From positions 1 through 21,879 of the IMG/VR virus record IMGVR_UViG_2547132415_000014: a stretch of 21,879 nt of DNA, one strand, 5' to 3'. The position numbers and the translations under genes were made by a program. The notes beneath the pieces are model-generated. The model did not search any database. It worked only from the letters and a program-made list of their open reading frames with translations, and was not told the DNA's origin. Positions within the stretch are counted from its first letter, which is position 1. Every line of letters starts with the position of its first letter. This DNA is from a virus (lineage: Duplodnaviria > Heunggongvirae > Uroviricota > Caudoviricetes). This document shows, one piece after another, positions 3,675 through 21,543 of this stretch.

Positions 3675-4115
3675 ATGGCGCGCCCAACAAAGTATCAAGA
3701 GGCGTATGCCGAACAGGCACGCAAACTGTGCTTGCTGGGCTACACCGATGCAGAACTTGCTGATTTCTTTGAAGTCAGTGAGTCAACTATTAACAAGTGG
3801 AAGCTTGATTATCCTAAGTTTTCGGAGTCCATAAAAAAGGGTAAGGCCGTCGCTGATGCAGAAGTTAGTGACCGTCTTTATCAACGCGCTATGGGCTTTG
3901 TGGCTCCAGACATCGATATTCGTGTTATTGAAAACAGAATTGTCGAAACTCCGCTTGAGAAGTATTACCCGCCTGATACAACCGCCGCCATCTTCTGGCT
4001 TAAGAACCGACAGAAGGATAAATGGCGCGACAAGGTTGATCACGAGCTAACAGGCAAAGACGGCGGCGCAATCCAGATTGAAACATCACCGATGAGCACT
4101 CTATTCGGAAAATGA
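3675..4115 (+). CDS. terminase small subunit (Sf6 gp1-like)
   Basis: 146-aa product; C-terminus ELTGKDGGAIQIETSPMSTLFGK recalled as matching the Sf6-type small terminase; immediately precedes and overlaps the large terminase (ATGA). Confidence 0.85.
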   Translation: MARPTKYQEAYAEQARKLCLLGYTDAELADFFEVSESTINKWKLDYPKFSESIKKGKAVADAEVSDRLYQRAMGFVAPDIDIRVIENRIVETPLEKYYPPDTTAAIFWLKNRQKDKWRDKVDHELTGKDGGAIQIETSPMSTLFGK

Positions 4116-5527
4116 CCTCGATTAATCCTATCTTTGAACCGTTCATTGAGGCGCATCGCTACAAAGTCGCCAAAGGCGGTCGAGGTAGCGGTAAGTCATG
4201 GGCAATTGCGAGACTGCTTGTTGAAGCGGCGCGTCGTCAGCCAGTGCGTATTCTCTGCGCTCGTGAACTGCAAAACAGTATCAGCGATTCGGTAATCCGG
4301 TTGCTTGAAGACACTATCGAGCGTGAAGGGTATTCGGCTGAGTTTGAAATTCAGCGTTCCATGATTCGTCATCTCGGAACGAATGCCGAATTCATGTTCT
4401 ACGGCATCAAAAACAACCCGACAAAAATTAAATCGCTCGAAGGTATTGATATCTGCTGGGTGGAGGAAGCGGAAGCGGTAACGAAGGAATCGTGGGATAT
4501 TCTGATTCCAACCATCCGCAAGCCATTTTCCGAAATATGGGTGAGCTTCAACCCGAAAAACATCCTCGACGATACCTATCAGCGATTCGTTGTAAATCCT
4601 CCCGATGATATTTGTCTGCTGACAGTGAACTACACCGACAACCCGCATTTTCCTGAAGTTCTCCGTCTGGAGATGGAAGAGTGTAAACGCAGAAATCCGA
4701 CACTGTATCGTCACATCTGGCTTGGTGAGCCGGTAAGCGCAAGTGATATGGCAATCATCAAACGTGAATGGCTTGAAGCCGCAACCGATGCGCACAAGAA
4801 ACTCGGATGGAAAGCGAAAGGCGCTGTTGTTTCTGCACATGACCCGTCAGATACAGGGCCAGATGCTAAAGGTTACGCATCGCGTCACGGGTCGGTGGTT
4901 AAGCGCATTGCCGAAGGTCTACTGATGGACATCAACGAGGGTGCTGACTGGGCTACTTCGCTGGCGATTGAAGACGGCGCTGACCATTACCTGTGGGATG
5001 GTGATGGTGTTGGTGCCGGGCTACGCAGACAGACAACGGAAGCGTTCTCCGGCAAGAAAATCACCGCCACGATGTTCAAGGGCAGTGAATCGCCATTCGA
5101 TGAAGATGCTCCGTATCAGGCCGGAGCATGGGCTGATGAAGTCGTACATGGCGACAACGTTCGCACTATTGGCGATGTGTTCCGCAATAAGCGAGCGCAA
5201 TTCTATTACGCGCTGGCTGACAGGCTGTATCTGACATATCGGGCGGTTGTTCACGGTGAGTATGCAGACCCCGACGACATGCTGAGTTTCGACAAAGAAG
5301 CGATAGGCGAGAAGATGCTGGAGAAGCTGTTTGCAGAACTGACGCAGATTCAGCGCAAATTCAATAACAACGGGAAGCTGGAGCTTATGACTAAGGTCGA
5401 AATGAAGCAGAAGCTCGGTATTCCATCTCCTAACCTGGCTGATGCGCTGATGATGTGTATGCATTGCCCGGAGTCGGCTGCGCAACCCGACTATTCCAGT
5501 TACTCTATTCCTTGTGGTGTAGGTTGA
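4112..5527 (+). CDS. terminase large subunit (ATPase plus nuclease)
   Basis: 471 aa; Walker A-type motif KGGRGSGKS near the N-terminus; Walker B-like ICWVEE; position between small terminase and portal. Confidence 0.9.
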   Translation: MTSINPIFEPFIEAHRYKVAKGGRGSGKSWAIARLLVEAARRQPVRILCARELQNSISDSVIRLLEDTIEREGYSAEFEIQRSMIRHLGTNAEFMFYGIKNNPTKIKSLEGIDICWVEEAEAVTKESWDILIPTIRKPFSEIWVSFNPKNILDDTYQRFVVNPPDDICLLTVNYTDNPHFPEVLRLEMEECKRRNPTLYRHIWLGEPVSASDMAIIKREWLEAATDAHKKLGWKAKGAVVSAHDPSDTGPDAKGYASRHGSVVKRIAEGLLMDINEGADWATSLAIEDGADHYLWDGDGVGAGLRRQTTEAFSGKKITATMFKGSESPFDEDAPYQAGAWADEVVHGDNVRTIGDVFRNKRAQFYYALADRLYLTYRAVVHGEYADPDDMLSFDKEAIGEKMLEKLFAELTQIQRKFNNNGKLELMTKVEMKQKLGIPSPNLADALMMCMHCPESAAQPDYSSYSIPCGVG

Positions 5528-5528
5528 T

Positions 5529-7727
5529 ATGGCAGAAAAAAAGATGACTGACTGGCATCGCAAGGTGCTGTGCAACTTTGATAATGCCTGGTCAGCAACG
5601 CAGGATATGCGTGAGCAGATTATTGAGGCTCAACGCTTCGTCAGGGTGTCCGGCGCACAGTGGGAAGGCAGCACAAACGCTGGTTACTCATTTGATGAAG
5701 GCAGGTTCGAGCATTATCCGCGTTTTGAACTGAATAAGATTACCCGTGAATGTGATCGCATCATTGGCGAGTATCGACAGAATCGCATCAGCGTTAAATT
5801 CAGGCCGAAGGATGACAAGGCATCGGAAGCGTTAGCCGAAAAAATGAACGGCAAATTCCGCGCTGACTATCAGGAAACATCCGGTGGCGAAGCGTGTGAT
5901 AACGCATTTGATGATGCCGTAACGGGCGGATTCGGTTGTTTCCGCATGTGTGCCGATTATGAAGATGAAATGGATCCGAGTAACGAGAAACGCCGTATAA
6001 GCCTTCTCCCTGTTTACGACCCAGCGACATGCGTCTTCTTTGATCAGGACAGCAAGCAATATGACCGCTCTGATGCTATGTGGGCTATGGAAATGTTCTC
6101 CATGACGCCTAAAGCGTTCGAGGCTGAATACCCTGATTCCATCGCGGCAAGCCTTTCTCGTGATGACACTGGCACTCAATATGACTGGTCAACCCCTGAT
6201 GCTATCTATGTTGGTCGCTACTACGAAGTTCGCATAGAGAAGGTGAAGCTCGCGGCATGGCGCAACCCTGTCAGCGGAGAAACGGCAATCTATGATGAAG
6301 AGCAAATCAAAGATATTGTCGACGAGCTGACCGATGGCGCATTCGAACTGATTGGTGAGCGGACAGTGAAGAAACGCAGAGTTTATTGCGGTCTTCTGTC
6401 TGGCGCTGAATGGCTGGAAGAACCGAAGCGTATTCCGGGCGAACATATTCCTCTCATCCCGGTATATGGGCGTCGATCATTTGTTGATAATCAGGAGCGA
6501 ATCGAAGGCCACGCAGCAAAAGCGATGGATGCACAGCGTCTTGAGAACCTGATGGTTTCCATGATTGCAGATAACGCCACTCAGGCTGGCGGCGATGGCA
6601 TTCCTGTAGTTGATGTTGACATGATTCCTGGTCCTCTTGCCACTCATTGGGCGGAGCGCAACAAAAAGCGCCCGGCGTTCCTGCCGATGGTCAGTCTGAA
6701 AAACAAAAACGGAGATATTACTGCGCAGGCTCAGGTCAGCAGTTATACACCTCCGACACAAATGCCTCCTGCTCTTGCCGGGCTATTGCAGTACACCGGA
6801 ACGGCTATTCAGCAAATTACAGGTGCGTCGCAGCTTGAGAATATGCCGAGCAACGTCGCTACCGATACCGTTGATAGCATCTTTAACCGGATGGACACGC
6901 AGTCCTATATCTACATGGACAACATGGCTAAATCCATGCGCCGTGCTGGCGTCGTGTGGCTTTCTATGGCTCGTGAAGTCTATGGCAGTGATACGCCGAT
7001 GCGTATCGTTAATGAGGACGGCAGCGATGACGTGGCGCTGATGACTGGTGAAGTGGTTGACCGTCAGACAGGGCAGGTTATCGCGCTTAATGACCTTTCG
7101 CAGGGTAACTATGAAGTGACTGTCGATGTTGGCCAGTCGTTCGCTACTCGCCGTGATGCAACGGTTAAGTCGTTACTTTCCATGCTGGCACTTATCCCAC
7201 CAGGAACTCCGAAGCACGACCTTGTATCGTCGATGATTCTCGACAATATGGACGGCGAAGGGATGGACGACCTGAAAGAATACAACCGCAATCAGTTGCT
7301 TCTGTCTGGCGTTATCAAGCCGAGAACGCCTGAAGAACAGCAGATGGTTGAACAGGCGAAACAACAACAGGCCAGTCAGCCAGATCCGGCTATGGTTGCA
7401 GCGCAAGGTCAGCTTCTTGCTGGTCAGGCTGAATTGCAGAAAGCGCAGAACGAACAGGCAGCCATTCAGGTTAAAGCATTCCAGGCACAGACTGATGCTC
7501 AGGTTGCAGCGGCAAATGTTGTGAAAATCCTCGCATCTGCCGATAGCCAGCAGAAATCTGATATCCGCGAGGCTCTGAAACTGCTCGGACAGTTCCAGCA
7601 ACAGCAAGGAGACAATGCCCGTGCTGATGCAGAGCTTGTCCTGAAAAGTCAGGCACAGGGTCATGCGCAGCGCATGGACATCAACAGCATCCTGCAAAAA
7701 TCAACTCAGCAACAACCACAGCAGTAA
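5529..7727 (+). CDS. portal protein (P22 gp1-like) with Gln-rich C-terminal barrel region
   Basis: 732 aa; recalled P22-portal hallmarks (GEHIPLIPVYG, PEEQQMVEQAKQQQASQPDPAMVAAQGQLLAGQAELQKAQ, ARADAELVLK...QRMDI); starts 2 nt after the terminase stop. Confidence 0.9.
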   Translation: MAEKKMTDWHRKVLCNFDNAWSATQDMREQIIEAQRFVRVSGAQWEGSTNAGYSFDEGRFEHYPRFELNKITRECDRIIGEYRQNRISVKFRPKDDKASEALAEKMNGKFRADYQETSGGEACDNAFDDAVTGGFGCFRMCADYEDEMDPSNEKRRISLLPVYDPATCVFFDQDSKQYDRSDAMWAMEMFSMTPKAFEAEYPDSIAASLSRDDTGTQYDWSTPDAIYVGRYYEVRIEKVKLAAWRNPVSGETAIYDEEQIKDIVDELTDGAFELIGERTVKKRRVYCGLLSGAEWLEEPKRIPGEHIPLIPVYGRRSFVDNQERIEGHAAKAMDAQRLENLMVSMIADNATQAGGDGIPVVDVDMIPGPLATHWAERNKKRPAFLPMVSLKNKNGDITAQAQVSSYTPPTQMPPALAGLLQYTGTAIQQITGASQLENMPSNVATDTVDSIFNRMDTQSYIYMDNMAKSMRRAGVVWLSMAREVYGSDTPMRIVNEDGSDDVALMTGEVVDRQTGQVIALNDLSQGNYEVTVDVGQSFATRRDATVKSLLSMLALIPPGTPKHDLVSSMILDNMDGEGMDDLKEYNRNQLLLSGVIKPRTPEEQQMVEQAKQQQASQPDPAMVAAQGQLLAGQAELQKAQNEQAAIQVKAFQAQTDAQVAAANVVKILASADSQQKSDIREALKLLGQFQQQQGDNARADAELVLKSQAQGHAQRMDINSILQKSTQQQPQQ

Positions 7728-7817
7728 TTAACCCATAACGTGCAATGGCTGTCTTTATGAGGCCTGGCACCCTATTGCCTTCCGATGGGCTGAACATCGA
7801 GTAAACAGGGGTAACAA

Positions 7818-8711
7818 ATGGACCAGATGGCAGAAAACACACCAGAAGTTGAAATCGAAACCGACGCGTCAGAGCAGATTCCTGATGATGTCGAACTGGC
7901 TGAAGAAGTCGAAACAGAAGATGGCAGTGAGTCATCCGGCAATGATGTAGAGGAAGCTACTGAAACTGATGACGACGAATCAGAACAGGAATTCTACTTT
8001 GGTGACGAAAAGCTGGATTCGCCAACCAGCGAAGATGGCGCAGAGCATGGACTGGTAAAACACCTGCGCAAGACGATTAAAGAGAAAGACCGCGAGCTGA
8101 AAGAGCTGATGCGTCAGTCTCAGAAACCCGTCGAGCAGCAGCCGGTAATCACTCAACCACCGCGAATGCCAAAACTGGACGATGAGGACATCGGTTTCGA
8201 TGAAGAAATCTACCAGCAACGCATGGCTAAGTGGGCAGAGGATAACGGCAAGTACCAGCAACAGGAGATGGCTCGCAAGCAGAAGGAGCAGGAGCTTCAG
8301 GCTGCTTATCAAGAGCGATTATCCAAATATCAGCAACGTGTTAAGGCTCTCAAGGTTCCTGGCTATCAGGAAGCAGAACAGGCCGTACTCGAGGAAATCC
8401 CCATCGAGACACAAAACGCGATCCTGTTTGAGTCAGAGAAGCCGGAAATCGTTGTTCTAGCGCTTGGTCGCAACGCTGAACTGCGCAAGCAACTGGCAGA
8501 AGCTACCAACCCCGTAGCAATTGGTCGTCTGCTGGAACGTATCGAATCGAAGGCCAGAATCATGCCAAAAGCAAAAACCACGGCAGCCACAACCCCGACA
8601 GTTAAGGGGAGCAACGGCGCAGTAATCAATAACCTCGACAAACTGAAAGCCAGGGCGCTGGAAACTGGTGACTGGACGCCGTATTTCGCCGCTAAAAAGG
8701 CAAAAAAATAA
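7818..8711 (+). CDS. scaffolding protein
   Basis: 297 aa, acidic N-terminus, charged helical middle, basic C-terminus; located between portal and coat as in P22 (gene 8). Confidence 0.8.
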   Translation: MDQMAENTPEVEIETDASEQIPDDVELAEEVETEDGSESSGNDVEEATETDDDESEQEFYFGDEKLDSPTSEDGAEHGLVKHLRKTIKEKDRELKELMRQSQKPVEQQPVITQPPRMPKLDDEDIGFDEEIYQQRMAKWAEDNGKYQQQEMARKQKEQELQAAYQERLSKYQQRVKALKVPGYQEAEQAVLEEIPIETQNAILFESEKPEIVVLALGRNAELRKQLAEATNPVAIGRLLERIESKARIMPKAKTTAATTPTVKGSNGAVINNLDKLKARALETGDWTPYFAAKKAKK

Positions 8712-8729
8712 CCTATCGGAGCATTAAGC

Positions 8730-9983
8730 ATGACTAACCAATTAGCAAAAGACCTTGAAATCATGTTCGAAAACTACGTTGAAGGCTTTGAGGCCGCCTG
8801 CGTAGTTTCCCGTAACGCTAAAAAATTCCGTCCCGGTGATACAGCAATGCAGCGAGCAGGTGATGTTCTGTATCGTCCGCAGCATTACCACATGAACATT
8901 GAGGAAGGCCTCGACCTCAGCAGCAAAACGCCAACAGCACTGGTTCAGCGCCTTGTTCCTTCTGTGTTCAAGGAGCCGAAAAACATTCTGTACACTCTGG
9001 ATGCGCGTGAAATGCGTGACCCGGAACATAAAACTGAAGCTGGTCGCGCTGCAGGTATGCGCCTTGCTGCACAGATTGACTCTGACCTGATTTCCATGGT
9101 CACGCAGCGTGCTACTAACGTGATCACAATGGCTGATTCAACCACTGGTTCACAGGGCCGTGATTTGTGGAACTGTGCGGCAGGTATTGATGCCACCATG
9201 ACGGCGATTGGTGTACCGCAGGGTATCAATCGTCGCTCTTTCTGGAACCCCTTCAACTACAAAGACCTTGCTGGCGAGCTTGGTCACCGTGCCTATGCTC
9301 AGGGCGCAACCCTGACAGCATACGAAAAAGCGCAGATCCCTCCGGTTGCGTCCTTCGATAGCTACAAGACCGATATTTCTGGTCGTGTTCCGAAGGGTAC
9401 AGCAACTTCCCTGACGCTGGCGGCTGAACCTGCGCACAAGGTTGAAGCGAAAGATGCCAACGATATGCCAGTGGATAACCGACAGGGGACTATTACGGTA
9501 TCTGCATCTGGGTTGCAGGTTGGCGATGCGTTCACCATTGCTGGCGTGAATTCTGTACACCAGATCACCAAAGACACCACCGGGCAGCCGCAGGTATTCC
9601 GCGTTCTGGCAGTAAGCGGAACGACAGTAACTATCTCCCCGAAAATTCTGCCGCCTGACAACGCAGATGTCGCCAGCCGTCCATATGCAAACGTTGATGC
9701 TAACGCGGCAAATGGTGCAGCAATTACCATTCTCAACAAGAATGCCGCACCGGCTAACCTGTTCTGGGCTGATGGTTCTGTTGAGCTGATGTACGGCAAA
9801 CTGGCGTTCCCGACTGGTCAGGGTCCACAGGTAATGACAGCAACCACCGAGCAGGGCGCTACGCTGATCATGTCTTACGCCTTCGACCACATCAAAGGCG
9901 TAACCACTGCGCGTTTCACCACTCTGTACGGTTGCTCTGTACTTGTTCCTGAATATACGGGCATCGTTATTGCCGGGCAGTAA
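8730..9983 (+). CDS. major capsid (coat) protein, P22 gp5-like HK97 fold
   Basis: 417 aa; strong SD (cggag); followed directly by a strong terminator; position and size match P22/Sf6-type coat proteins. Confidence 0.9.
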   Translation: MTNQLAKDLEIMFENYVEGFEAACVVSRNAKKFRPGDTAMQRAGDVLYRPQHYHMNIEEGLDLSSKTPTALVQRLVPSVFKEPKNILYTLDAREMRDPEHKTEAGRAAGMRLAAQIDSDLISMVTQRATNVITMADSTTGSQGRDLWNCAAGIDATMTAIGVPQGINRRSFWNPFNYKDLAGELGHRAYAQGATLTAYEKAQIPPVASFDSYKTDISGRVPKGTATSLTLAAEPAHKVEAKDANDMPVDNRQGTITVSASGLQVGDAFTIAGVNSVHQITKDTTGQPQVFRVLAVSGTTVTISPKILPPDNADVASRPYANVDANAANGAAITILNKNAAPANLFWADGSVELMYGKLAFPTGQGPQVMTATTEQGATLIMSYAFDHIKGVTTARFTTLYGCSVLVPEYTGIVIAGQ

Positions 9984-9989
9984 TTTTGG

Positions 9990-10010
9990 TGGGGCTTCGG
10001 CCCCATTTTT
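9990..10010 (+). terminator. intrinsic terminator after the coat gene (tggggc-ttcg-gcccca then T5)
   Basis: Perfect 6-bp GC stem with a ttcg tetraloop, followed by ttttt 10006-10010. Confidence 0.65.
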
Positions 10011-10024
10011 ATTGGGAGAAGACA

Positions 10025-10213
10025 ATGGCACGAACAATGCTCTATAAGCCGGGCAACATGATCACCTGTGGTCAGTTTGCTGTCGATTACATCATTGTTG
10101 ATGACGAAGAAGTTAAATCTCACCTGAAAAAAGGTTGGGTGAAAACTCCTGAAGAAACCGCAACGAAGCAAAAAGTGGCTAAGGCGGAAGAAGATGGCGA
10201 AAACGAAGGGTGA
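10025..10213 (+). CDS. hypothetical small protein (62 aa)
   Basis: ATG 10025 preceded by gggagaag; the longer ORF from 9986 would start inside the terminator hairpin, so the internal start is preferred; overlaps the gp4 start by 20 nt. Confidence 0.45.
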   Translation: MARTMLYKPGNMITCGQFAVDYIIVDDEEVKSHLKKGWVKTPEETATKQKVAKAEEDGENEG

Positions 10214-10655
10214 TCTCGTTCTAAAGGCTTTACGAAAAGCCGGGCTGTATTCCAATGCCACGTTGACAGATGCTGACCCTCAGGCAATTGAAGATGCCAT
10301 TAATGACCTCGAAGACATGATGGCAGCATGGCAGGCTAAAGGTATCGAGCTTGGATATCAGTTTGCTGATACAGAAAACGGCATCATGCCGTTACCTGAC
10401 GATGATTCAGGCATCCCTGCATGGGCAAATGATGGCGTCGCTTTGAAACTCGCTGTGCAAGTGTGCATGGATAACGTCATTCAGCCGTCAGACGCTCTCC
10501 TTACCGCTGCTGACAGTGCATATCAAACAATCTGTATCGCTTTAACCAAAATACCACCACTTGAGCGGCGAAATGACATGCCTCGCGGTAGTGGCAACAA
10601 AAGCGCGTTTACGTGGAATCGGTTTTACATCGAGAAAGATGATCCGAGTACGTGA
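10194..10655 (+). CDS. head-to-tail adaptor (P22 gp4-like)
   Basis: 153 aa; N-terminus KTKGDLVLKALRKAGLYSNATLTDADPQAIEDAINDLEDMMAAW and MPRGSGN motif recalled as P22 gp4-like. Confidence 0.85.
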   Translation: MAKTKGDLVLKALRKAGLYSNATLTDADPQAIEDAINDLEDMMAAWQAKGIELGYQFADTENGIMPLPDDDSGIPAWANDGVALKLAVQVCMDNVIQPSDALLTAADSAYQTICIALTKIPPLERRNDMPRGSGNKSAFTWNRFYIEKDDPST

Positions 10656-10664
10656 GGTGAATAA

Positions 10665-12083
10665 ATGCCGATTCAGCAACTTCCGCTTATGAAAGGTGTC
10701 GGCAAAGATTTCCGAAACGCCGACTATATCGACTATCTGCCAGTGAATATGTTGGCTACACCCAAAGAAATCCTTAACAGCAGCGGATATCTTCGCTCAT
10801 TCCCGGGCATTGCCAAACGCTCTGATGTGAACGGTGTATCGCGCGGCGTCGAGTACAACATGGCGCAGAATGCTGTTTATCGCGTGTGTGGTGGCAAACT
10901 GTACAAAGGAGAAAGCGAAGTCGGTGATGTTGCCGGAAGTGGTCGTGTATCAATGGCGCATGGTCGGACATCTCAGGCTGTAGGCGTTAATGGTCAACTT
11001 ATCGAGTATCGCTATGATGGTACGGTTAAAACCGTCTCAAACTGGCCTACAGACAGTGGATTCACTCAGTATGAGTTAGGTTCAGTTCGCGACATTACGC
11101 GCTTGCGTGGGCGTTATGCGTGGTCAAAAGACGGCACTGATTCATGGTTCATCACTGACCTTGAAGACGAATCGCATCCTGACCGTTACAGCGCACAATA
11201 TCGCGCAGAATCGCAGCCGGACGGCATCATCGGTATCGGCACATGGCGAGATTTCATCGTCTGTTTTGGTTCATCGACGATTGAATATTTTTCCCTGACT
11301 GGTGCAACCACTGTTGGTGCCGCTTTGTATGTCGCACAGCCATCACTGATGGTGCAGAAAGGTATTGCCGGAACTTACTGCAAAACACCATTCGCTGATT
11401 CCTATGCGTTTATCAGCAATCCGGCAACAGGTGCGCCGTCTATATATATCATCGGCTCCGGTCAGGTGTCACCAATCGCCAGCGCGAGCATTGAGAAAAT
11501 CCTCCGCTCCTACACTGCTGATGAACTGGCTGATGGCGTGATGGAGTCTCTGCGATTTGATGCGCATGAGCTGCTGATTATCCACCTTCCGCGCCATGTT
11601 CTTGTTTACGACGCATCTTCAAGCGCCAATGGTCCGCAATGGTGTGTGCTGAAAACAGGCCTGTATGACGATGTGTACCGCGCTATCGACTTCATTTACG
11701 AAGGCAATCAGATAACGTGCGGCGATAAGCTGGAGTCCGTGACCGGGAAATTGCAGTTCGATATCAGCAGTCAGTATGGTCTTCAACAGGAACACCTGCT
11801 GTTTACTCCGTTGTTCAAAGCGGATAATGCCAGAGTGTTCGACCTTGAGGTTGAGTCGTCAACTGGCGTTGCGCAGTATGCTGACCGCCTTTTTCTCTCT
11901 GCAACCACTGACGGCATCAATTACGGGCGTGAGCAGATGATTGAGCAGAATGAACCGTTCGTTTACGACAAACGTGTTTTGTGGAAGCGTGTCGGGCGCA
12001 TCAGGAAAAATGTCGGCTTCAAATTGCGCGTTATCACTAAGTCACCTGTCACTCTGTCAGGCTGCTCTATTAGGCTGGAGTAA
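10665..12083 (+). CDS. tail hub / head-completion protein (P22 gp10-like)
   Basis: 472 aa; begins MPIQQLPLMKGVGKDFRNADYIDYLPVNMLATPKEILNSSGYLRSFPGI, recalled as closely matching P22 gp10. Confidence 0.9.
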   Translation: MPIQQLPLMKGVGKDFRNADYIDYLPVNMLATPKEILNSSGYLRSFPGIAKRSDVNGVSRGVEYNMAQNAVYRVCGGKLYKGESEVGDVAGSGRVSMAHGRTSQAVGVNGQLIEYRYDGTVKTVSNWPTDSGFTQYELGSVRDITRLRGRYAWSKDGTDSWFITDLEDESHPDRYSAQYRAESQPDGIIGIGTWRDFIVCFGSSTIEYFSLTGATTVGAALYVAQPSLMVQKGIAGTYCKTPFADSYAFISNPATGAPSIYIIGSGQVSPIASASIEKILRSYTADELADGVMESLRFDAHELLIIHLPRHVLVYDASSSANGPQWCVLKTGLYDDVYRAIDFIYEGNQITCGDKLESVTGKLQFDISSQYGLQQEHLLFTPLFKADNARVFDLEVESSTGVAQYADRLFLSATTDGINYGREQMIEQNEPFVYDKRVLWKRVGRIRKNVGFKLRVITKSPVTLSGCSIRLE

Positions 12084-12085
12084 TA

Positions 12086-12579
12086 ATGATTTCACATGAA
12101 GAGTTGAAGCGTCATTTATCATATGACCCAGAAACCGGGGTTTTACCCGAAAAATATCAAATACAGCGAGCGTCACCGTTGGTGATGAAGCGGGAACCAT
12201 GTGCACTGGTTATTTAAGGATAATGGTCTGTGGTAAGAGATACTTAGCGCATAGGCTTGCTTGGTTTTATATGACAGGAAAACCTGCAAATTGCTTAATA
12301 GATCATATTAACGGAGACAGAACGGATAACAGATTTTCAAATTTAAGATTGGCAAATAGATCCCAGAATGGGATGAACAGGAATATTCAAAGAAATAATA
12401 AGTCAGGATATCCGGGTGTCTGTTGGCACAAAAATCTCTGCAAGTGGACTGTTTCTTTCAAGAAAAATAAAAAACAGGTTCACGTTGGATGCTTCGATGA
12501 CCTGGACGAAGCTATCTCAGCATCAATGATGGCAAGAGCAGAAAATTTTGGAGAGTTTGCAAGGCAGAGGATTGAGTAA
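12086..12579 (+). pseudogene. free-standing HNH homing endonuclease gene, interrupted by a 1-nt frameshift in the G4T4 run at 12137-12144
   Basis: ATG 12086 encodes MISHEELKRHLSYDPETGV then runs into a stop at 12212-12214; the -1 frame continues FTRKISNTASVTVGDEAGT into the 12199 ORF. Inserting one T in the T4 run restores a single ORF of about 164 codons. Confidence 0.5.
12199..12579 (+). CDS. HNH endonuclease, C-terminal ORF (HNH motif plus AP2-like DNA-binding domain)
   Basis: 126 aa with AHRLAW...[24 protein letters not shown] (HNH) and [19 protein letters not shown] (AP2-like); visibly AT-rich versus flanking structural genes; stop overlaps the needle start (TAATG). Confidence 0.8.
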
Positions 12580-13280
12580 TGGTTGATTCATCACTGAATG
12601 ATCCTGTTGTGGTTCAGGCTACGCGCCTTGATGCTTCAATTTTGCCACGCAATATATTCAGCCAGTCTTACCTGCTGTATGTCATAAATCAGGGAGCTGA
12701 TGTCGGCGCAATTGCCGGGAAGGCAAATCAGGCTGGTCAGGGCGCTTACGATGCTCAGGTAAAAAACGATGAACAGGACGTCGAACTGGCTGATCACGAC
12801 GCAAGAATCACCGCAAACACAAAAGCGATAAATCTACTTGAGGTCAGGTTAACAACTGCCGAAGGGAAGATAGTCGTACTGCGTAGCGATGTTGATTACT
12901 TGCTGGATGAGGTTATCGATATTCAGGCGCATCTGGTCACTGTTGACCAAAGACTGGATGACGTAGAAAGCGATGTATCTGACATTAAGAGTGATTACGT
13001 ATCGAAAACCGTAACCGAATCGCAGTCTCTTGCGTCACCGCTGGATGTAAAAACATCATATTCAGTTGATGGGATTCAGGTCGTTGGAGCAAGGCAGACC
13101 GGATGGACGGCGGCCACAGGTACACCTCTTCTTGGCTCATTCAACGCTAACCAGTCATACACTGTCGGCACTACGTACGCACAATCCGAAGTCGCAGCTC
13201 TCGCTACAGGTTTGCAGCAGTCGCGGCAGCGTATTCTGGCGCTTGAAACAGCACTTAGATTACATGGGCTGATTGACTGA
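12579..13280 (+). CDS. tail needle (P22 gp26-like trimeric coiled-coil plug)
   Basis: 233 aa; N-terminus [66 protein letters not shown] and C-terminus LRLHGLID recalled as P22 gp26-like. Confidence 0.9.
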
Positions 13281-13735
13281 TGATTACATTCAAACCAACG
13301 CGAAACATCGACCTGATAGAAGCAGTCGGAAATCACCATGACATTATCGCCGGGAGCAACAACGGTGATGGATACGACTACAAACCTGAATGCCGTTACT
13401 TTGAGGTTAACGTGCACGGGCAGTTCGGCGGCATTGTTTACTATCAGGAGATTCAGCCGCTGACATTCGATTGCCACGCCATGTACCTGCCAGAGATTCG
13501 AGGCTTCAGCAAGGAAATCGGGCTGGCGTTCTGGCGATACATTCTGACTAACACCACCGTTCAGTGCGTCACATCGTTCGCTGCGCGCAAATTCCGCCAC
13601 GGTCAGATGTACTGCGCAATGATTGGTCTTAAGCGTGTAGGAACCATCAAGAAATACTTCAAAGGCGTGGATGACGTGACGTTTTACAGCGCCACACGTG
13701 AAGAACTAATCGACTTCCTGAATAACGGGAGATAG
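13280..13735 (+). CDS. P22 gp14-like protein (head/ejection-associated)
   Basis: 151-aa ORF translationally coupled to the needle gene (TGATG); assignment rests on its position between gp26 and gp7 in the P22 gene order. Confidence 0.65.
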   Translation: MITFKPTRNIDLIEAVGNHHDIIAGSNNGDGYDYKPECRYFEVNVHGQFGGIVYYQEIQPLTFDCHAMYLPEIRGFSKEIGLAFWRYILTNTTVQCVTSFAARKFRHGQMYCAMIGLKRVGTIKKYFKGVDDVTFYSATREELIDFLNNGR

Positions 13736-13737
13736 CC

Positions 13738-14430
13738 ATGTTATATGCATTTAAGCTGGGCAGAAAACTGCGCGGCGAGGAACCTTATTGTCCTGAAAAA
13801 GGCGGGAAAGGTGGCTCCGATAAAAGCGCAAAGTATGCAGCAGAAGCCCAGAAGTATGCCGCAGACCTGCAAAATCAGCAGTTCAACACCATCATGAACA
13901 ACCTGAAACCGTTTACTCCTCTGGCTGAGAAGTATGTCGGCAGCCTCGAGAACTTATCGTCTCTGGAGGGGCAAGGTCAGGCGCTTAACCAGTATTACAA
14001 CTCTCAGCAGTACAAAGACCTTGCTGGTCAGGCGCGCTATCAGAGTCTGGCGGCAGCGGAAGCAACAGGTGGATTGGGTTCCACCGCAACCAGTAATCAG
14101 TTAGCAACAATCGCACCAACGCTTGGTCAGCAGTGGCTGTCTGGTCAGATGAACAACTACCAGAATCTGGCAAATATTGGTCTTGGCGCGCTTCAGGGGC
14201 AGGCAAATGCCGGGCAAACATATGCCAACAACATGAGCCAGATTTCACAGCAAAGCGCGGCACTGGCGGCGGCAAACGCTAATAGACCTTCCGGCCTTCA
14301 ATCTGCAATAGGCGGGGCTGCCTCTGGAGCAATTGCTGGAGCACAACTTGGCAGCATTGTTCCTGGTATTGGTACTGGTATTGGTGCCGCTGTTGGTGGC
14401 GGTCTTGGTCTGCTTGGCTCGTTGTTTTAA
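13738..14430 (+). CDS. ejection protein (P22 gp7-like) with Gly/Ala-rich hydrophobic C-terminus
   Basis: 230 aa beginning MLYAFKLGRKLRGEEPYCPEKGGKGGS; Gln/Asn-rich middle and GxxxG-rich C-terminal tail; position in the 7-20-16 ejection block. Confidence 0.85.
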   Translation: MLYAFKLGRKLRGEEPYCPEKGGKGGSDKSAKYAAEAQKYAADLQNQQFNTIMNNLKPFTPLAEKYVGSLENLSSLEGQGQALNQYYNSQQYKDLAGQARYQSLAAAEATGGLGSTATSNQLATIAPTLGQQWLSGQMNNYQNLANIGLGALQGQANAGQTYANNMSQISQQSAALAAANANRPSGLQSAIGGAASGAIAGAQLGSIVPGIGTGIGAAVGGGLGLLGSLF

Positions 14431-14439
14431 GGGGTAATC

Positions 14440-15915
14440 ATGGCTACGTGGCAACAGGGTATTAATTCTGGTGGTTTTCTGGCTGGCATCGGTACGCAAA
14501 ATGAGAATGCGCCAAAGGCAAGCGACATTAACGCAACGCTTGGTCTGATCCGCGAAAACAATGAATTGGCTCGATCAGGTGCAAATAACGTTGGTCTGAC
14601 CGCGTTACGTGGTCTGGCTGGAGTTGCTGATATTTATAAGCAGGAACAGCAACAGAAAGCTATTAGGGCGTTCAATAAGGTTCACGCTGATGCATGGGCT
14701 TCTGGTGATCCATCGGGACTATTTAAGTTTGCCAAGGAAAATCCAGCGTTTGTTGCACAGGCACAACAGGCGTTTTCCGGTCTTAATGAGCAGCAACGTA
14801 ACGATATGGGCGATTTAGCCATGAGGGCTAACGTCGCTCTTTCTCAGGGACCGGAAGCCTACAGTAAATTCATTACTGACAACAAGGACAGGTTAAATCG
14901 CGTTGGCGCTAATGCTGACTGGATGATTCAGACAGGTATTCAGAATCCAGAGCAGCTATCACACATGCTGACTACTATGTCTCTCGGTGCGCTTGGACCA
15001 GAAAAGGCGTTTGCTGTTCAGGACAAGATAGCTGGTCGTGAGATTGACCGAGGCAGACTGGCAGAGACAATCCGCAGCAATCAGGCCAGCGAAGCACTTC
15101 AGGCGAGAGGGCAGGATATTAGCCGAGCAAATGCGTTAACGTCAGCATATGCACCAACAGCCGCAATGCAGAATTACAATCAGTACGCGCAAATGTTAAA
15201 GGCGGATCCAGATGGTGCAGCGGCATTTGCGGCAGCGGCGGGAATTAATCCCAATGCTAAGAAATTACTTAAGGTTGAAACCAATCCTGATGGCTCGGTA
15301 ACTAAGTATTACACCGATGGCAGCGAGGAAGCAGGAAAACTAAACCAACCTATATCTGGTGATGGCATTAAACCAATTAGTTTGCCACAAGCGCAAAGCA
15401 TCATAGATAAGGCTAATGAGGGTTCCAAGAAGGCGGCAGGATTTGCTTTGCGATTAAAAGATTCAATGGACTCAATGAATCAGCTTAGTAAAAGCATTGA
15501 CCCTAAGCGAGTTGCATTAATAAATCGCTCTCTTGGTGATGGGACTATTGCAAATTTAAGCCTATCACCAGCGGAGCAGCAATATATGGTAAATGCGAGA
15601 GACGCCTTGTATGCAATTTTGCGCCCAGAAACAGGTGCAGCAATTACTCTGCCAGAGATGCAGGAGTATTCCAAAATGTACCTGCCTCAGCCCGGTGATT
15701 CCAAGGCTGCTACTGAAACAAAAATGCGAAAAATGCAGGGCCAATATAACTCATTACGTGGTCAGTCTGGTCGCGTTTATGATGCTTTGGTGGTTTCAAG
15801 TGCTGCAAATAGTCAACAACAGAGCAATAGCCAACAACCGACAAATACCCAACAGCAGCAGAGTCAATCCGGATCATATACCTCAAAATCAGGCATTCAA
15901 TTTACGGTGGAATGA
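14440..15915 (+). CDS. ejection protein (P22 gp20-like)
   Basis: 491 aa; second gene of the ejection block; Q/S-rich low-complexity C-terminal tail. Confidence 0.85.
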
Positions 15916-19189: not shown

Positions 19190-21247
19190 ATGACAGACAT
19201 TACAGCCAATGTTGTAGTGAGTATGCCTTCGCAACTCTTCACTATGGCTCGTTCTTTTAAAGCCGTAGCCAATGGCAAAATTTATATCGGTAAAATTGAC
19301 ACTGACCCAGTAAATCCTGAAAACCAGATTCAGGTTTGTGTGGAGAATGAAGACGGTTCTCACGTTCCTGTTTCGCAACCAATAATCATTAACGCTGCTG
19401 GATATCCGGTATATAACGGACAGATTGCCAAGTTCGTAACTGTGCAAGGCCATTCTATGGCTGTTTATGATGCGTATGGTGCACAGCAGTTCTATTTTCC
19501 TAATGTGCTGAAGTATGACCCGGATCAGTTAAGACAAGAGTTAGCAACAGAGGGTAATGAAATACTTGTTGACGACTCCCGTATTGCAGTTAAAAGTGTT
19601 CATGTAAATTCAAAACTTAGAACCCAGCACAATAAAAACGCAGAAATAATCACGCCAAATGATTTTATATCAAATTATGACATGATATCTGCAGCTATTA
19701 ACTCTGGAGATAGTGCCGCAGTATTTAATTCCAGGTATGCATTCACAATAACAGTTGGGGAATATGGTAATTTTAAATCTATTAGTGATGCTCTAAACTC
19801 AGCTGTTGCACTGCGTCCACTATGGAAAAATGGCATTGATTTTTGCATAATTAAAATTCTTTCCGGTTTTGTGCTCAATGAGCAAATAGAAATTTCAGCA
19901 GGATGTGACTTATCATGGATTAAAATAATATCAGAAGACTCAGTGGTTTTCTCTGATACCAGTTTGTTTACTAAAACTGTTAGGACGTATTACGAATACA
20001 AATATTTATTTTACATTTGCGATGCAGCAAAAAGTCCTGTATTTGCTATTCAGATTGAAGAAAATAGAGATGATAGCGATGTTTGTGCATTTATTGTAAC
20101 TCAAAAAGCTGAACTTAATTTCTATCCGTATTCAGGTGCTCGAAAGTTCTACGTTGGAATTCATGGTAGCTTTGGTGCAAAAATTAGTGCATATCATACC
20201 GGATGTGCTCCTGATGAGGAAAGTGTTGCTGCATATATGCCAGAAGGGTATTACGTATGTGATTTTTCTTATAGCAGATACTCTTCCCTGCAACTGGTAA
20301 ATAATGTCAAGGCATCAATGCCTGTAAGCAAGTTTGAACGGTGCACAGAGAGTACGGTTGCGTCAGTTAATTGTATTTATAATGTTAAAGCAGATTTTCA
20401 GGGGTCAAGTGCAAGCTATTGTTATATAGGATGGAATGTAAGAGATGGTTCAAATGTTAATATACGCGACCATAAAACTATACATTGCTCATATCGTGGA
20501 TTAACCTGCATTCATACAGCATATGTTGATGCAAGACGACATGACGTTGAAGAAAGTGATGCAGAAACAAGTGGTAAAGTCCTTGAACCAAATATTGAAA
20601 AAGGTTTTTATGGATGTGCACTTGGTGTGCGTATTGATGGTGCGGGTTGTGTTGATGTTGCTGGTAATGATATGCGCAATTGTGGAACAGCCGTTAATGC
20701 AGACACTGGTGCTGTTATTTCAGGAAAGGCTGTAGATATCTCAGGGGCTGAGTTGGGATTTGATTGCCATGCAGGAGCATCTGTTAATTTTCCAAGGCTA
20801 TGGGGTACAGATATAAAAAAATTAATGCACCTCCAAGATGGTGTAAGGTTTAACTCTAATATTTGTCATGTATTTGGTGCAAATCCCACAAAAGATATTA
20901 GATGGATTGATGTAGAGAGATCTGAAGCTTCTTTTATGAATGCAACGCTGGATGCAGATTCAGGATTTATTGCCGACTGTGGTAGTAGGATAACCATTGA
21001 AGGAAGTAAAGTTAAAAACCAAACAATAAGAAGTTTTTTTGGATCACATGTGGCTATAAATAATACTGTTGCTGACAGAACTTATTCAGATATAGCCGAT
21101 GTTCCGCAGTTGACTATTAGTGGAGGATCTTTTATTTCTGCTACAGGATATTCTAATTCTGACTCCAGCCCTCTTAGGTTGAGCACAACACGAAATACAC
21201 TTGGAGTTGGAGGAGCCATATTTTCAACCAATGGGGAAGTTTCATGA
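19190..21247 (+). CDS. tailspike protein: P22 gp9-type N-terminal head-binding domain fused to an unrelated beta-helix-like receptor-binding/depolymerase domain
   Basis: First ~110 aa ([34 protein letters not shown]...NVLKYDPDQ) recalled as P22 tailspike head-binding domain; the rest is unrelated, AT-rich, Cys-rich (~20 Cys) and Asn/Ser/Gly-rich. Confidence 0.9.
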
Positions 21248-21543
21248 TTAAGAGCATTGATGTCACTCCATTTCTTCACTCGCTTTGCGCTTTTGCGGCT
21301 CAGGTACTGGTTGGTATTTTTACCGGAAACTGGGCTTACGGTGCGATAGCCGGTTGTACGTTCTTCATTGCGCGTGAACACACCCAGGCAGAATATCGCT
21401 GGATAGAAAAGTTTGGGAAAGGGAAACGTGTCAACATGCCGTGGTGGGGAGGTTTTGATCCACGCGTGTGGGATGTGGGAAGTTTGTTGGATTTTTCTTT
21501 CCCAATTATCGGATGCTTATTGGTATGGATTCTTGCATCGTAG
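21244..21543 (+). CDS. small membrane protein (99 aa, two hydrophobic segments), translationally coupled to the tailspike
   Basis: ATG overlaps the tailspike stop (ATGA); hydrophobic segments [30 protein letters not shown] and [19 protein letters not shown]; occupies the slot between tailspike and att that holds conversion genes in P22. Confidence 0.5.

Follow-up and report, generated by a model that had tools for sequence, protein, structure and literature searches.

A probable homing endonuclease gene of the HNH-AP2 class at the gp10/gp26 junction of P22-like phages, likely inactivated in an Escherichia coli prophage by a one-nucleotide deletion

The stretch of DNA analysed here (the window, 21,879 nt) covers the late region, from lysis to tailspike, of a prophage of the P22-like (Lederbergvirus) group. 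An exact look-up shows that it makes up all of AQEI01000201.1, a contig of the E. coli 174750 genome (assembly GCA_000354915.1). Between the intact virion genes gp10 and gp26 lies a short element whose coding sequence is split over two reading frames. The features at this locus are as follows.

10665–12083, + strand: gp10 (tail hub / packaged-DNA stabilisation protein), intact, 472 aa (ORF list; annotated homologues in loci L001, L002 and L003)
12066–12083, + strand: recoded gp10 tail carried with the element, TCT ATT AGG CTG GAG TAA, S-I-R-L-E-stop (junction comparison)
12066–12564, + strand: inserted cassette, 499 nt in and 3 nt (ATA) out, net +496 nt (junction alignment)
12077–12080, + strand: GGAG, putative Shine-Dalgarno sequence of the endonuclease ATG, 5 nt upstream of it and within the final gp10 codons (read from the sequence)
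12086–12217, + strand: N-terminal fragment ORF, 43 aa (ORF list; annotated as hypothetical protein EC174750_0708, EMX09763.1)
12137–12144, + strand: G4T4 run where one nucleotide appears to have been deleted; every intact copy has T5 (aligned pairwise against phage 683R2)
12199–12579, + strand: C-terminal fragment ORF, 126 aa, beginning at internal Met38, one frame back (ORF list, Pfam)
12241–12375, + strand: HNH_3 nuclease motif, residues 53–97 of the intact protein (Pfam)
12403–12543, + strand: AP2-type DNA-binding domain, residues 107–153 of the intact protein (Pfam)
12565–12579, + strand: putative displaced original gp10 tail, CAG AGG ATT GAG TAA, which now supplies the endonuclease ORF with its final four codons and its stop (equal to the empty site minus 3 nt)
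12579–13280, + strand: gp26 (tail needle), intact, 233 aa (ORF list and annotated homologues)

Pfam Phage_stabilise is recorded for gp10 in L022 and L023, and gp26 carries its own Shine-Dalgarno sequence (GAGGA, 12567–12571). The remaining virion genes of the window are full length, with no second frameshift. A promoter and terminator scan of the + strand from 11800 to 12800 found nothing above shuffle expectation, and Rfam and tRNA scans gave no match inside or near the endonuclease element. Elsewhere in the window, two phage-borne tRNA genes (span 436–591), tRNA-Asn(GTT) at 436–510 and tRNA-Thr(TGT) at 516–591, are flanked by a Q-type antiterminator ORF (12–344) and a holin/lysozyme/Rz cassette (834–2051). 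A 99-aa ORF (21244–21543), called in two assemblies and with no Pfam match, overlaps the stop of the 685-aa tailspike gene (19190–21247).

An earlier note on this DNA, made from the sequence alone, had described an AT-rich gene following the gp10 stop at 12083, with two frames joined in the G4T4 run at 12137–12144 and a stop over the gp26 ATG. Every coordinate checks out, and the element has 37%–39% G+C versus ~50% in the flanks. Within the run, G4 occupies 12137–12140 and T4 12141–12144. The first 19 codons, which the note had placed in another frame than the rest, match the N-terminus of an intact homologue; codons 1–19 of the 43-aa ORF (MISHEELKRHLSYDPETGV) are the authentic endonuclease N-terminus, and codons 20–43 are out-of-frame read-through to a TAA. 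Because one T is missing from the T5 run at codons 19–21, a ribosome starting at the normal ATG reads 43 codons before it meets a stop, and the T4 allele leaves both the nuclease and the DNA-binding domain in an ORF whose sole start is internal Met38. This 126-aa ORF keeps the whole HNH_3 motif and the AP2 domain, is without residues 1–37, and has a stop (TAA, 12577–12579) that overlaps the gp26 ATG (12579–12581). With one T inserted, the sequence reads ...ETGVFTRKISN... and agrees exactly with the intact homologue of 164 aa.

The restored 164-aa protein (HNH_3 plus AP2) starts MISHEELKRHLSYDPETGVFTRK and is identical to WP_021529423.1 and URC09345.1. The latter is encoded by an uninterrupted 495-nt CDS at the same site in phage vB_EcoP-683R2 (L001, 3027–3521), the one phage record having this DNA; pairwise alignment with the window shows, inside the element, the additional T, a single synonymous substitution and no other difference. 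Public records place this exact 164-aa sequence on 743 contigs, and the prophages in which WP_021529423.1 is annotated carry several gp10 and gp26 alleles. T5 is present in each of the 13 full-length copies from complete E. coli genomes (542/531 bases aligned to a 541/530-base query), and the sole indel between the window and 14 other copies is a gained T at 12141/12145. A pattern scan that permitted T4 to T6 in the run returned T5 (the 41-nt form of the pattern) in 9 of 9 IMG/VR contigs and in the single metagenome contig matched, which duplicates an IMG/VR one; it found no T4 copy in IMG/VR (9 matches), JGI metagenomes (1) or species-representative genomes (0 matches). The fifth T is needed to encode Phe20, a residue that at least 90% of 72 family members share. 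The T5 that the earlier note had predicted for the intact form is found in every other full copy, apart from the rare T4 assemblies. The element also reaches beyond Escherichia, as one member of the endonuclease's 90% cluster is recorded in a Klebsiella pneumoniae assembly.

The assignment of the gene to the HNH/AP2 type, also proposed in the earlier note, draws on domain, fold and family evidence. HNH_3 (PF13392) scores 58.7 bits in the restored protein and 59.4 bits in the 126-aa ORF, above the cut-off of 24.8, whereas AP2 (PF00847) scores 23.3–23.9 bits, below its cut-off of 33.3; many family homologues carry a precomputed PF00847 match. The predicted nuclease-domain fold matches the solved member I-HmuI, and the predicted AP2 region has the three-stranded sheet plus helix of solved AP2 domains. 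The family profile matches I-HmuI (1u3e, E = 1e-5, residues 41–112) and WRI1 AP2 domains (E = 2e-7), and PHROG 99 'HNH endonuclease' is matched at E = 4e-70. These matches identify an I-HmuI-like HNH ('HNN') nuclease fused to an AP2 DNA-binding domain, and they support placing the intact gene in that class (HNH_3, 'HNN', plus AP2), with nuclease activity as a prediction. The family comprises 4,952 proteins at E ≤ 1e-5, the majority of 160–180 aa with HNH_3 plus AP2. Across 72 homologues D73, H74, N86 and N98 are invariant (the codons of Asp73-His74, GAT CAT, lie at 12301–12306) and N76, D81, N82 and N95 are at least 90% conserved; all are kept in the window ORF. Toward the N-terminus, at least 90% of the same homologues share L7, Y13, P15, T17, G18 and F20, and G33 and G37 are also conserved. 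In the structure model residues 4–22 form a helix and a beta-hairpin, and residues 1–37 belong to the nuclease-domain sheet. The vB_EcoP-683R2 GenBank record names the intact endonuclease 'endolysin', to which none of this evidence gives any support; the label is wrong.

Comparison with insert-free gp10–gp26 junctions, suggested in the earlier note as a check, took in 6 empty and 9 occupied sites and narrows the likely target to ~25 nt. The empty junction reads GGCTGC CAG ATA AGG ATT GAG TAATGG in IME10, E212 and HK620, with Huey one base off and Sf6 similar, and the gp10 tail of these element-free genomes is CAG ATA AGG ATT GAG TAA (Q-I-R-I-E-stop). The occupied junction reads GGCTGC TCT ATT AGG CTG GAG TAA TA ATG...GCA AGG CAG AGG ATT GAG TAATGG. 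The element splits the junction in the genomes that bear it, and 8 of the 18 gp10-tail positions differ there from the empty site; gp10 start and gp26 start are 1,914 nt apart in the window versus 1,418 nt in IME10. The TAATG overlap with gp26 is retained through the displaced gp10 tail. The RIE tail of the endonuclease may be captured gp10 sequence, a reading that rests on 18 nt of similarity; it fits with the more distant homologues, which end shortly past GEFAR, without an RIE tail.

The distribution of the element was surveyed with a 501-nt probe across the IME10 gp10/gp26 junction, which was counted as uninterrupted when one uninterrupted piece covered at least 80% of the probe. By this measure 126 of 132 phage records show no interruption of the junction, and in them the gp10 stop overlaps the gp26 ATG. 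The junction is occupied in one phage record, 13 complete E. coli genomes (plus three interrupted by IS2) and nine IMG/VR contigs. When the 13 T5 copies are set against the window, the element (about 12063–12582) is near-invariant, with 0–1 substitutions in ~520 nt, whereas the flanks differ by several percent, dense differences beginning left of 12059–12062 and right of 12583–12608. The low divergence of the element relative to its flanks would indicate recent horizontal spread. Presence or absence at one exact site, combined with an invariant element in diverged flanks, supports interpretation as a free-standing homing endonuclease gene, of which it is the signature, and on these grounds the insertion proposed in the earlier note stands. 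A sister gene (78% protein and 80% nucleotide identity) occupies the same gp10/needle junction in a more distant P22-like lineage, with dN/dS relative to it of 0.08 overall and 0.17 for codons 1–37; from the shared site and the value of 0.08 it follows that the association with the gp10/gp26 site is old and the protein under selection. The sister gene comes from metagenomes (L018, 2441–2935; L019; L020); it ends R-I-E-stop over the needle ATG, and the gp10 tail preceding it is also of the TCT AT... type. In the literature we found no account of an endonuclease gene at the gp10/gp26 junction of P22-like phages, nor of this protein, the matches concerning other sites (epsilon34 gene 31, and the SEN22 terminase/portal insertion).

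The same gene is disrupted elsewhere. In three complete genomes IS2 is inserted at the equivalent of window 12193–12197; in E. coli FDAARGOS_1280 (L014, 2555–4387), where IS2 splits the gene at this position, the gene halves overlap by 5 bp. Many draft contigs end at the IS2 position (L024 and 18 similar), which fits the same IS2 break. The 126-aa 'HNH endonuclease' is called on 28 contigs because many draft assemblies break exactly at this site, and we rejected these contigs as extra frameshift alleles, most being IS2-broken or contig-end copies (L024 and 18 similar, L025). Two of the places with the 126-aa ORF, represented by L021, have a deletion joint and not a frameshift. L021 (GCA_018260195.1, ~9940–10000) is what remains of a prophage: unrelated DNA, beside a sucrose-utilisation locus, has taken the place of all sequence to the left of the T run. 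The joint reads CCGGAG/TTACCCG, against CCGGGGTTTTACCCG in the window, and suggests a deletion or rearrangement ending in the same short T run. The IS2 insertions and the L021 deletion indicate that the endonuclease gene is dispensable to the prophage and repeatedly lost, the expected fate of a homing endonuclease gene once empty sites run out.

The lesion in the window is a single base in a homopolymer, a classic error site, and the strain could in truth be T5, with an ordinary intact homing endonuclease gene and an artefact of sequencing or assembly in the record. Exact-protein look-ups of both fragment ORFs located T4 in only two places besides the window, L022 and L027, and the allele is very rare by another count as well (the 43-aa ORF is on only 2 contigs, versus 743 for the intact protein). 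L027, a noisy Logan contig (assembled from ERR2797045), has T4 alongside three further 1-nt deletions in 1.6 kb; we discounted it as a third independent T4 allele, and it demonstrates that errors yielding T4 do arise in noisy data. L022 weighs the other way. This independent assembly (GCA_043073825.1) contains another mosaic prophage, which departs from the window at 291 positions over 4027–14454 yet has the same T4 and zero differences over 10141–13585; this identical 3.4-kb block argues that T4 is an allele shared by descent and not a sequencing error. The rest of the 21.9-kb window is also free of frameshifts, and a five-base run is short for homopolymer error if the data are of Illumina type. 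We consider an artefact unlikely, and T4 is most likely a real, inherited 1-nt deletion. Among the options left by the earlier note, decay, slippage and mis-sequencing, decay is the best supported, through the T4 of L022, and slippage is without support. Viewed more widely, the window and L022 are near-identical for ~4.85 kb (window 8733–13585, coat gene to gp14) and ~3% diverged on either side, which is clearly a recombination block in virion-assembly genes.

A genuine T4 allele could still give full-length enzyme, at a deliberately low dose, by −1 ribosomal frameshifting or transcriptional slippage at G GGG UUU UA, the products then reading ...ETGVLTRK... or ...ETGVFTRK.... The shift needed is indeed −1 and inside the G4U4 run, a single-tRNA slip (Leu-tRNA, UUA to UUU) is conceivable, and the allele lasted long enough to reach two mosaic prophages. 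However, the zero-frame codons are ACC GGG GUU UUA CCC, and X_XXY_YYZ fits in no register, as the earlier note had said of the heptamer. Appreciable transcriptional slippage is known from runs much longer than T4. The 81 nt downstream (12145–12225) have a minimum free energy of −16 kcal/mol (z = −0.35), and 69 of 200 shuffles fold as well or better. Only 2–3 assemblies have the two-frame form, against a single ORF on 743 contigs and in every relative sampled; at this position the 78% sister gene reads GGTTTGTTTACT and lacks any run. With T5 in essentially all copies and a sister gene lacking the run, the two-frame layout is not conserved. Since the lost N-terminus is itself conserved and under purifying selection, we regard recoding as extremely improbable. 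It is very unlikely, too, that the 126-aa ORF is a functional shortened nuclease or DNA-binding protein made from Met38, possibly by re-initiation after the stop at 12217. Such a protein would keep the full HNH_3 motif, all conserved catalytic-type residues and the AP2 domain, the 43-codon ORF ends 16 nt downstream of the Met38 ATG, and NCBI pipelines annotate the 126-aa product as 'HNH endonuclease'; but the missing residues 1–37 are conserved in the family, under purifying selection and part of the modelled nuclease-domain sheet, and Met38 has a poor ribosome-binding context, its sole Shine-Dalgarno-like element being GGGA at 3-nt spacing. Nor do the 28 contigs with this ORF represent a common short gene, most being IS2 breaks, contig ends or the deletion. 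A compromise, in which T4 is attenuated and not dead, with rare −1 slippage at GGGGUUUUA or Met38 re-initiation yielding a trickle of enzyme, we would also rate as highly improbable. If true, the element could persist in a lysogen at less risk of cutting related prophages, and the carriage of T4 into two different mosaic prophages would be accounted for.

The reading we prefer is that the element is a free-standing HNH-AP2 homing endonuclease gene at the gp10/gp26 junction of P22-like phages, present in the window as a young pseudogene by a 1-nt deletion, and we think this probable. Cleavage and homing are what we infer from the population patterns. The intact enzyme would recognise and cut the uninterrupted junction (...GGCTGC CAG ATA AGG ATT GAG TAATGG...) of element-free phages, during co-infection or in encounters between prophage and phage, and repair off the element-bearing genome would then copy in the 499-nt cassette. 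The cassette's own recoded gp10 tail would destroy the target, and its ORF would read into the displaced gp10 tail, preserving the overlap of stop and ATG with gp26. Once resident in a lysogen, with no empty sites left, the enzyme would be unselected and inactivating mutations could pile up: T5 to T4 here, IS2 insertion or deletion elsewhere. We expect no harm to the virion genes, since the late operon is antiterminated and gp26 has a ribosome-binding site to itself.

For annotation, EC174750_0708 and the 126-aa 'HNH endonuclease' should become one frameshifted pseudogene, and past correct annotation the lesion has little significance. The public data show all stages of invasion and decay: the site without the element, the intact gene among many gp10/gp26 backgrounds, the diverged sister gene at the same site, and three independent kinds of inactivation. 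With the likely target defined within ~25 nt, the junction would lend itself readily to experiments on intron-less homing in temperate P22-like phages.

The element is an uncharacterised member of a well-known kind, and its T4 frameshift is ordinary early decay. The solved relative I-HmuI is encoded in a group I intron of Bacillus phage SPO1 (PDB 1u3e) and is reportedly a nicking enzyme. It shares only 23% identity with the present protein and, besides being intron-encoded, has a C-terminal DNA-binding module that is not AP2. The Seg and Mob genes of T-even phages (SegG, MobE) are intron-less and lie between conserved genes; their enzymes cut the element-free allele, the gene is copied by repair, and flanking markers are co-converted. 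Seg enzymes are of the GIY-YIG type and Mob enzymes are HNH proteins without an AP2 domain. Homing by Seg and Mob has been shown experimentally, whereas for the present element it is read from population patterns. The same gene at the same site is represented by WP_021529423.1 and URC09345.1, which have 100% protein identity to the window once the T is restored; those copies are intact (T5). A further parallel is in the Xanthomonas phages Xp10, OP1 and Xop411, in which free-standing HNN/HNH-AP2 genes occur as intact and as truncated or degenerate copies, read as gain followed by decay (PMC2248197). These genes have the same domain pair as the present one and the boxes HRLAW, DH, DNR and NLR, and they too stand free between phage genes (PMC2248197); like the present protein, theirs are without a mapped target. 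Here, in contrast, the host is E. coli and the carrier a temperate P22-like prophage, and single-base resolution is reached for the insertion site, for the empty allele and for the earliest inactivating lesion.
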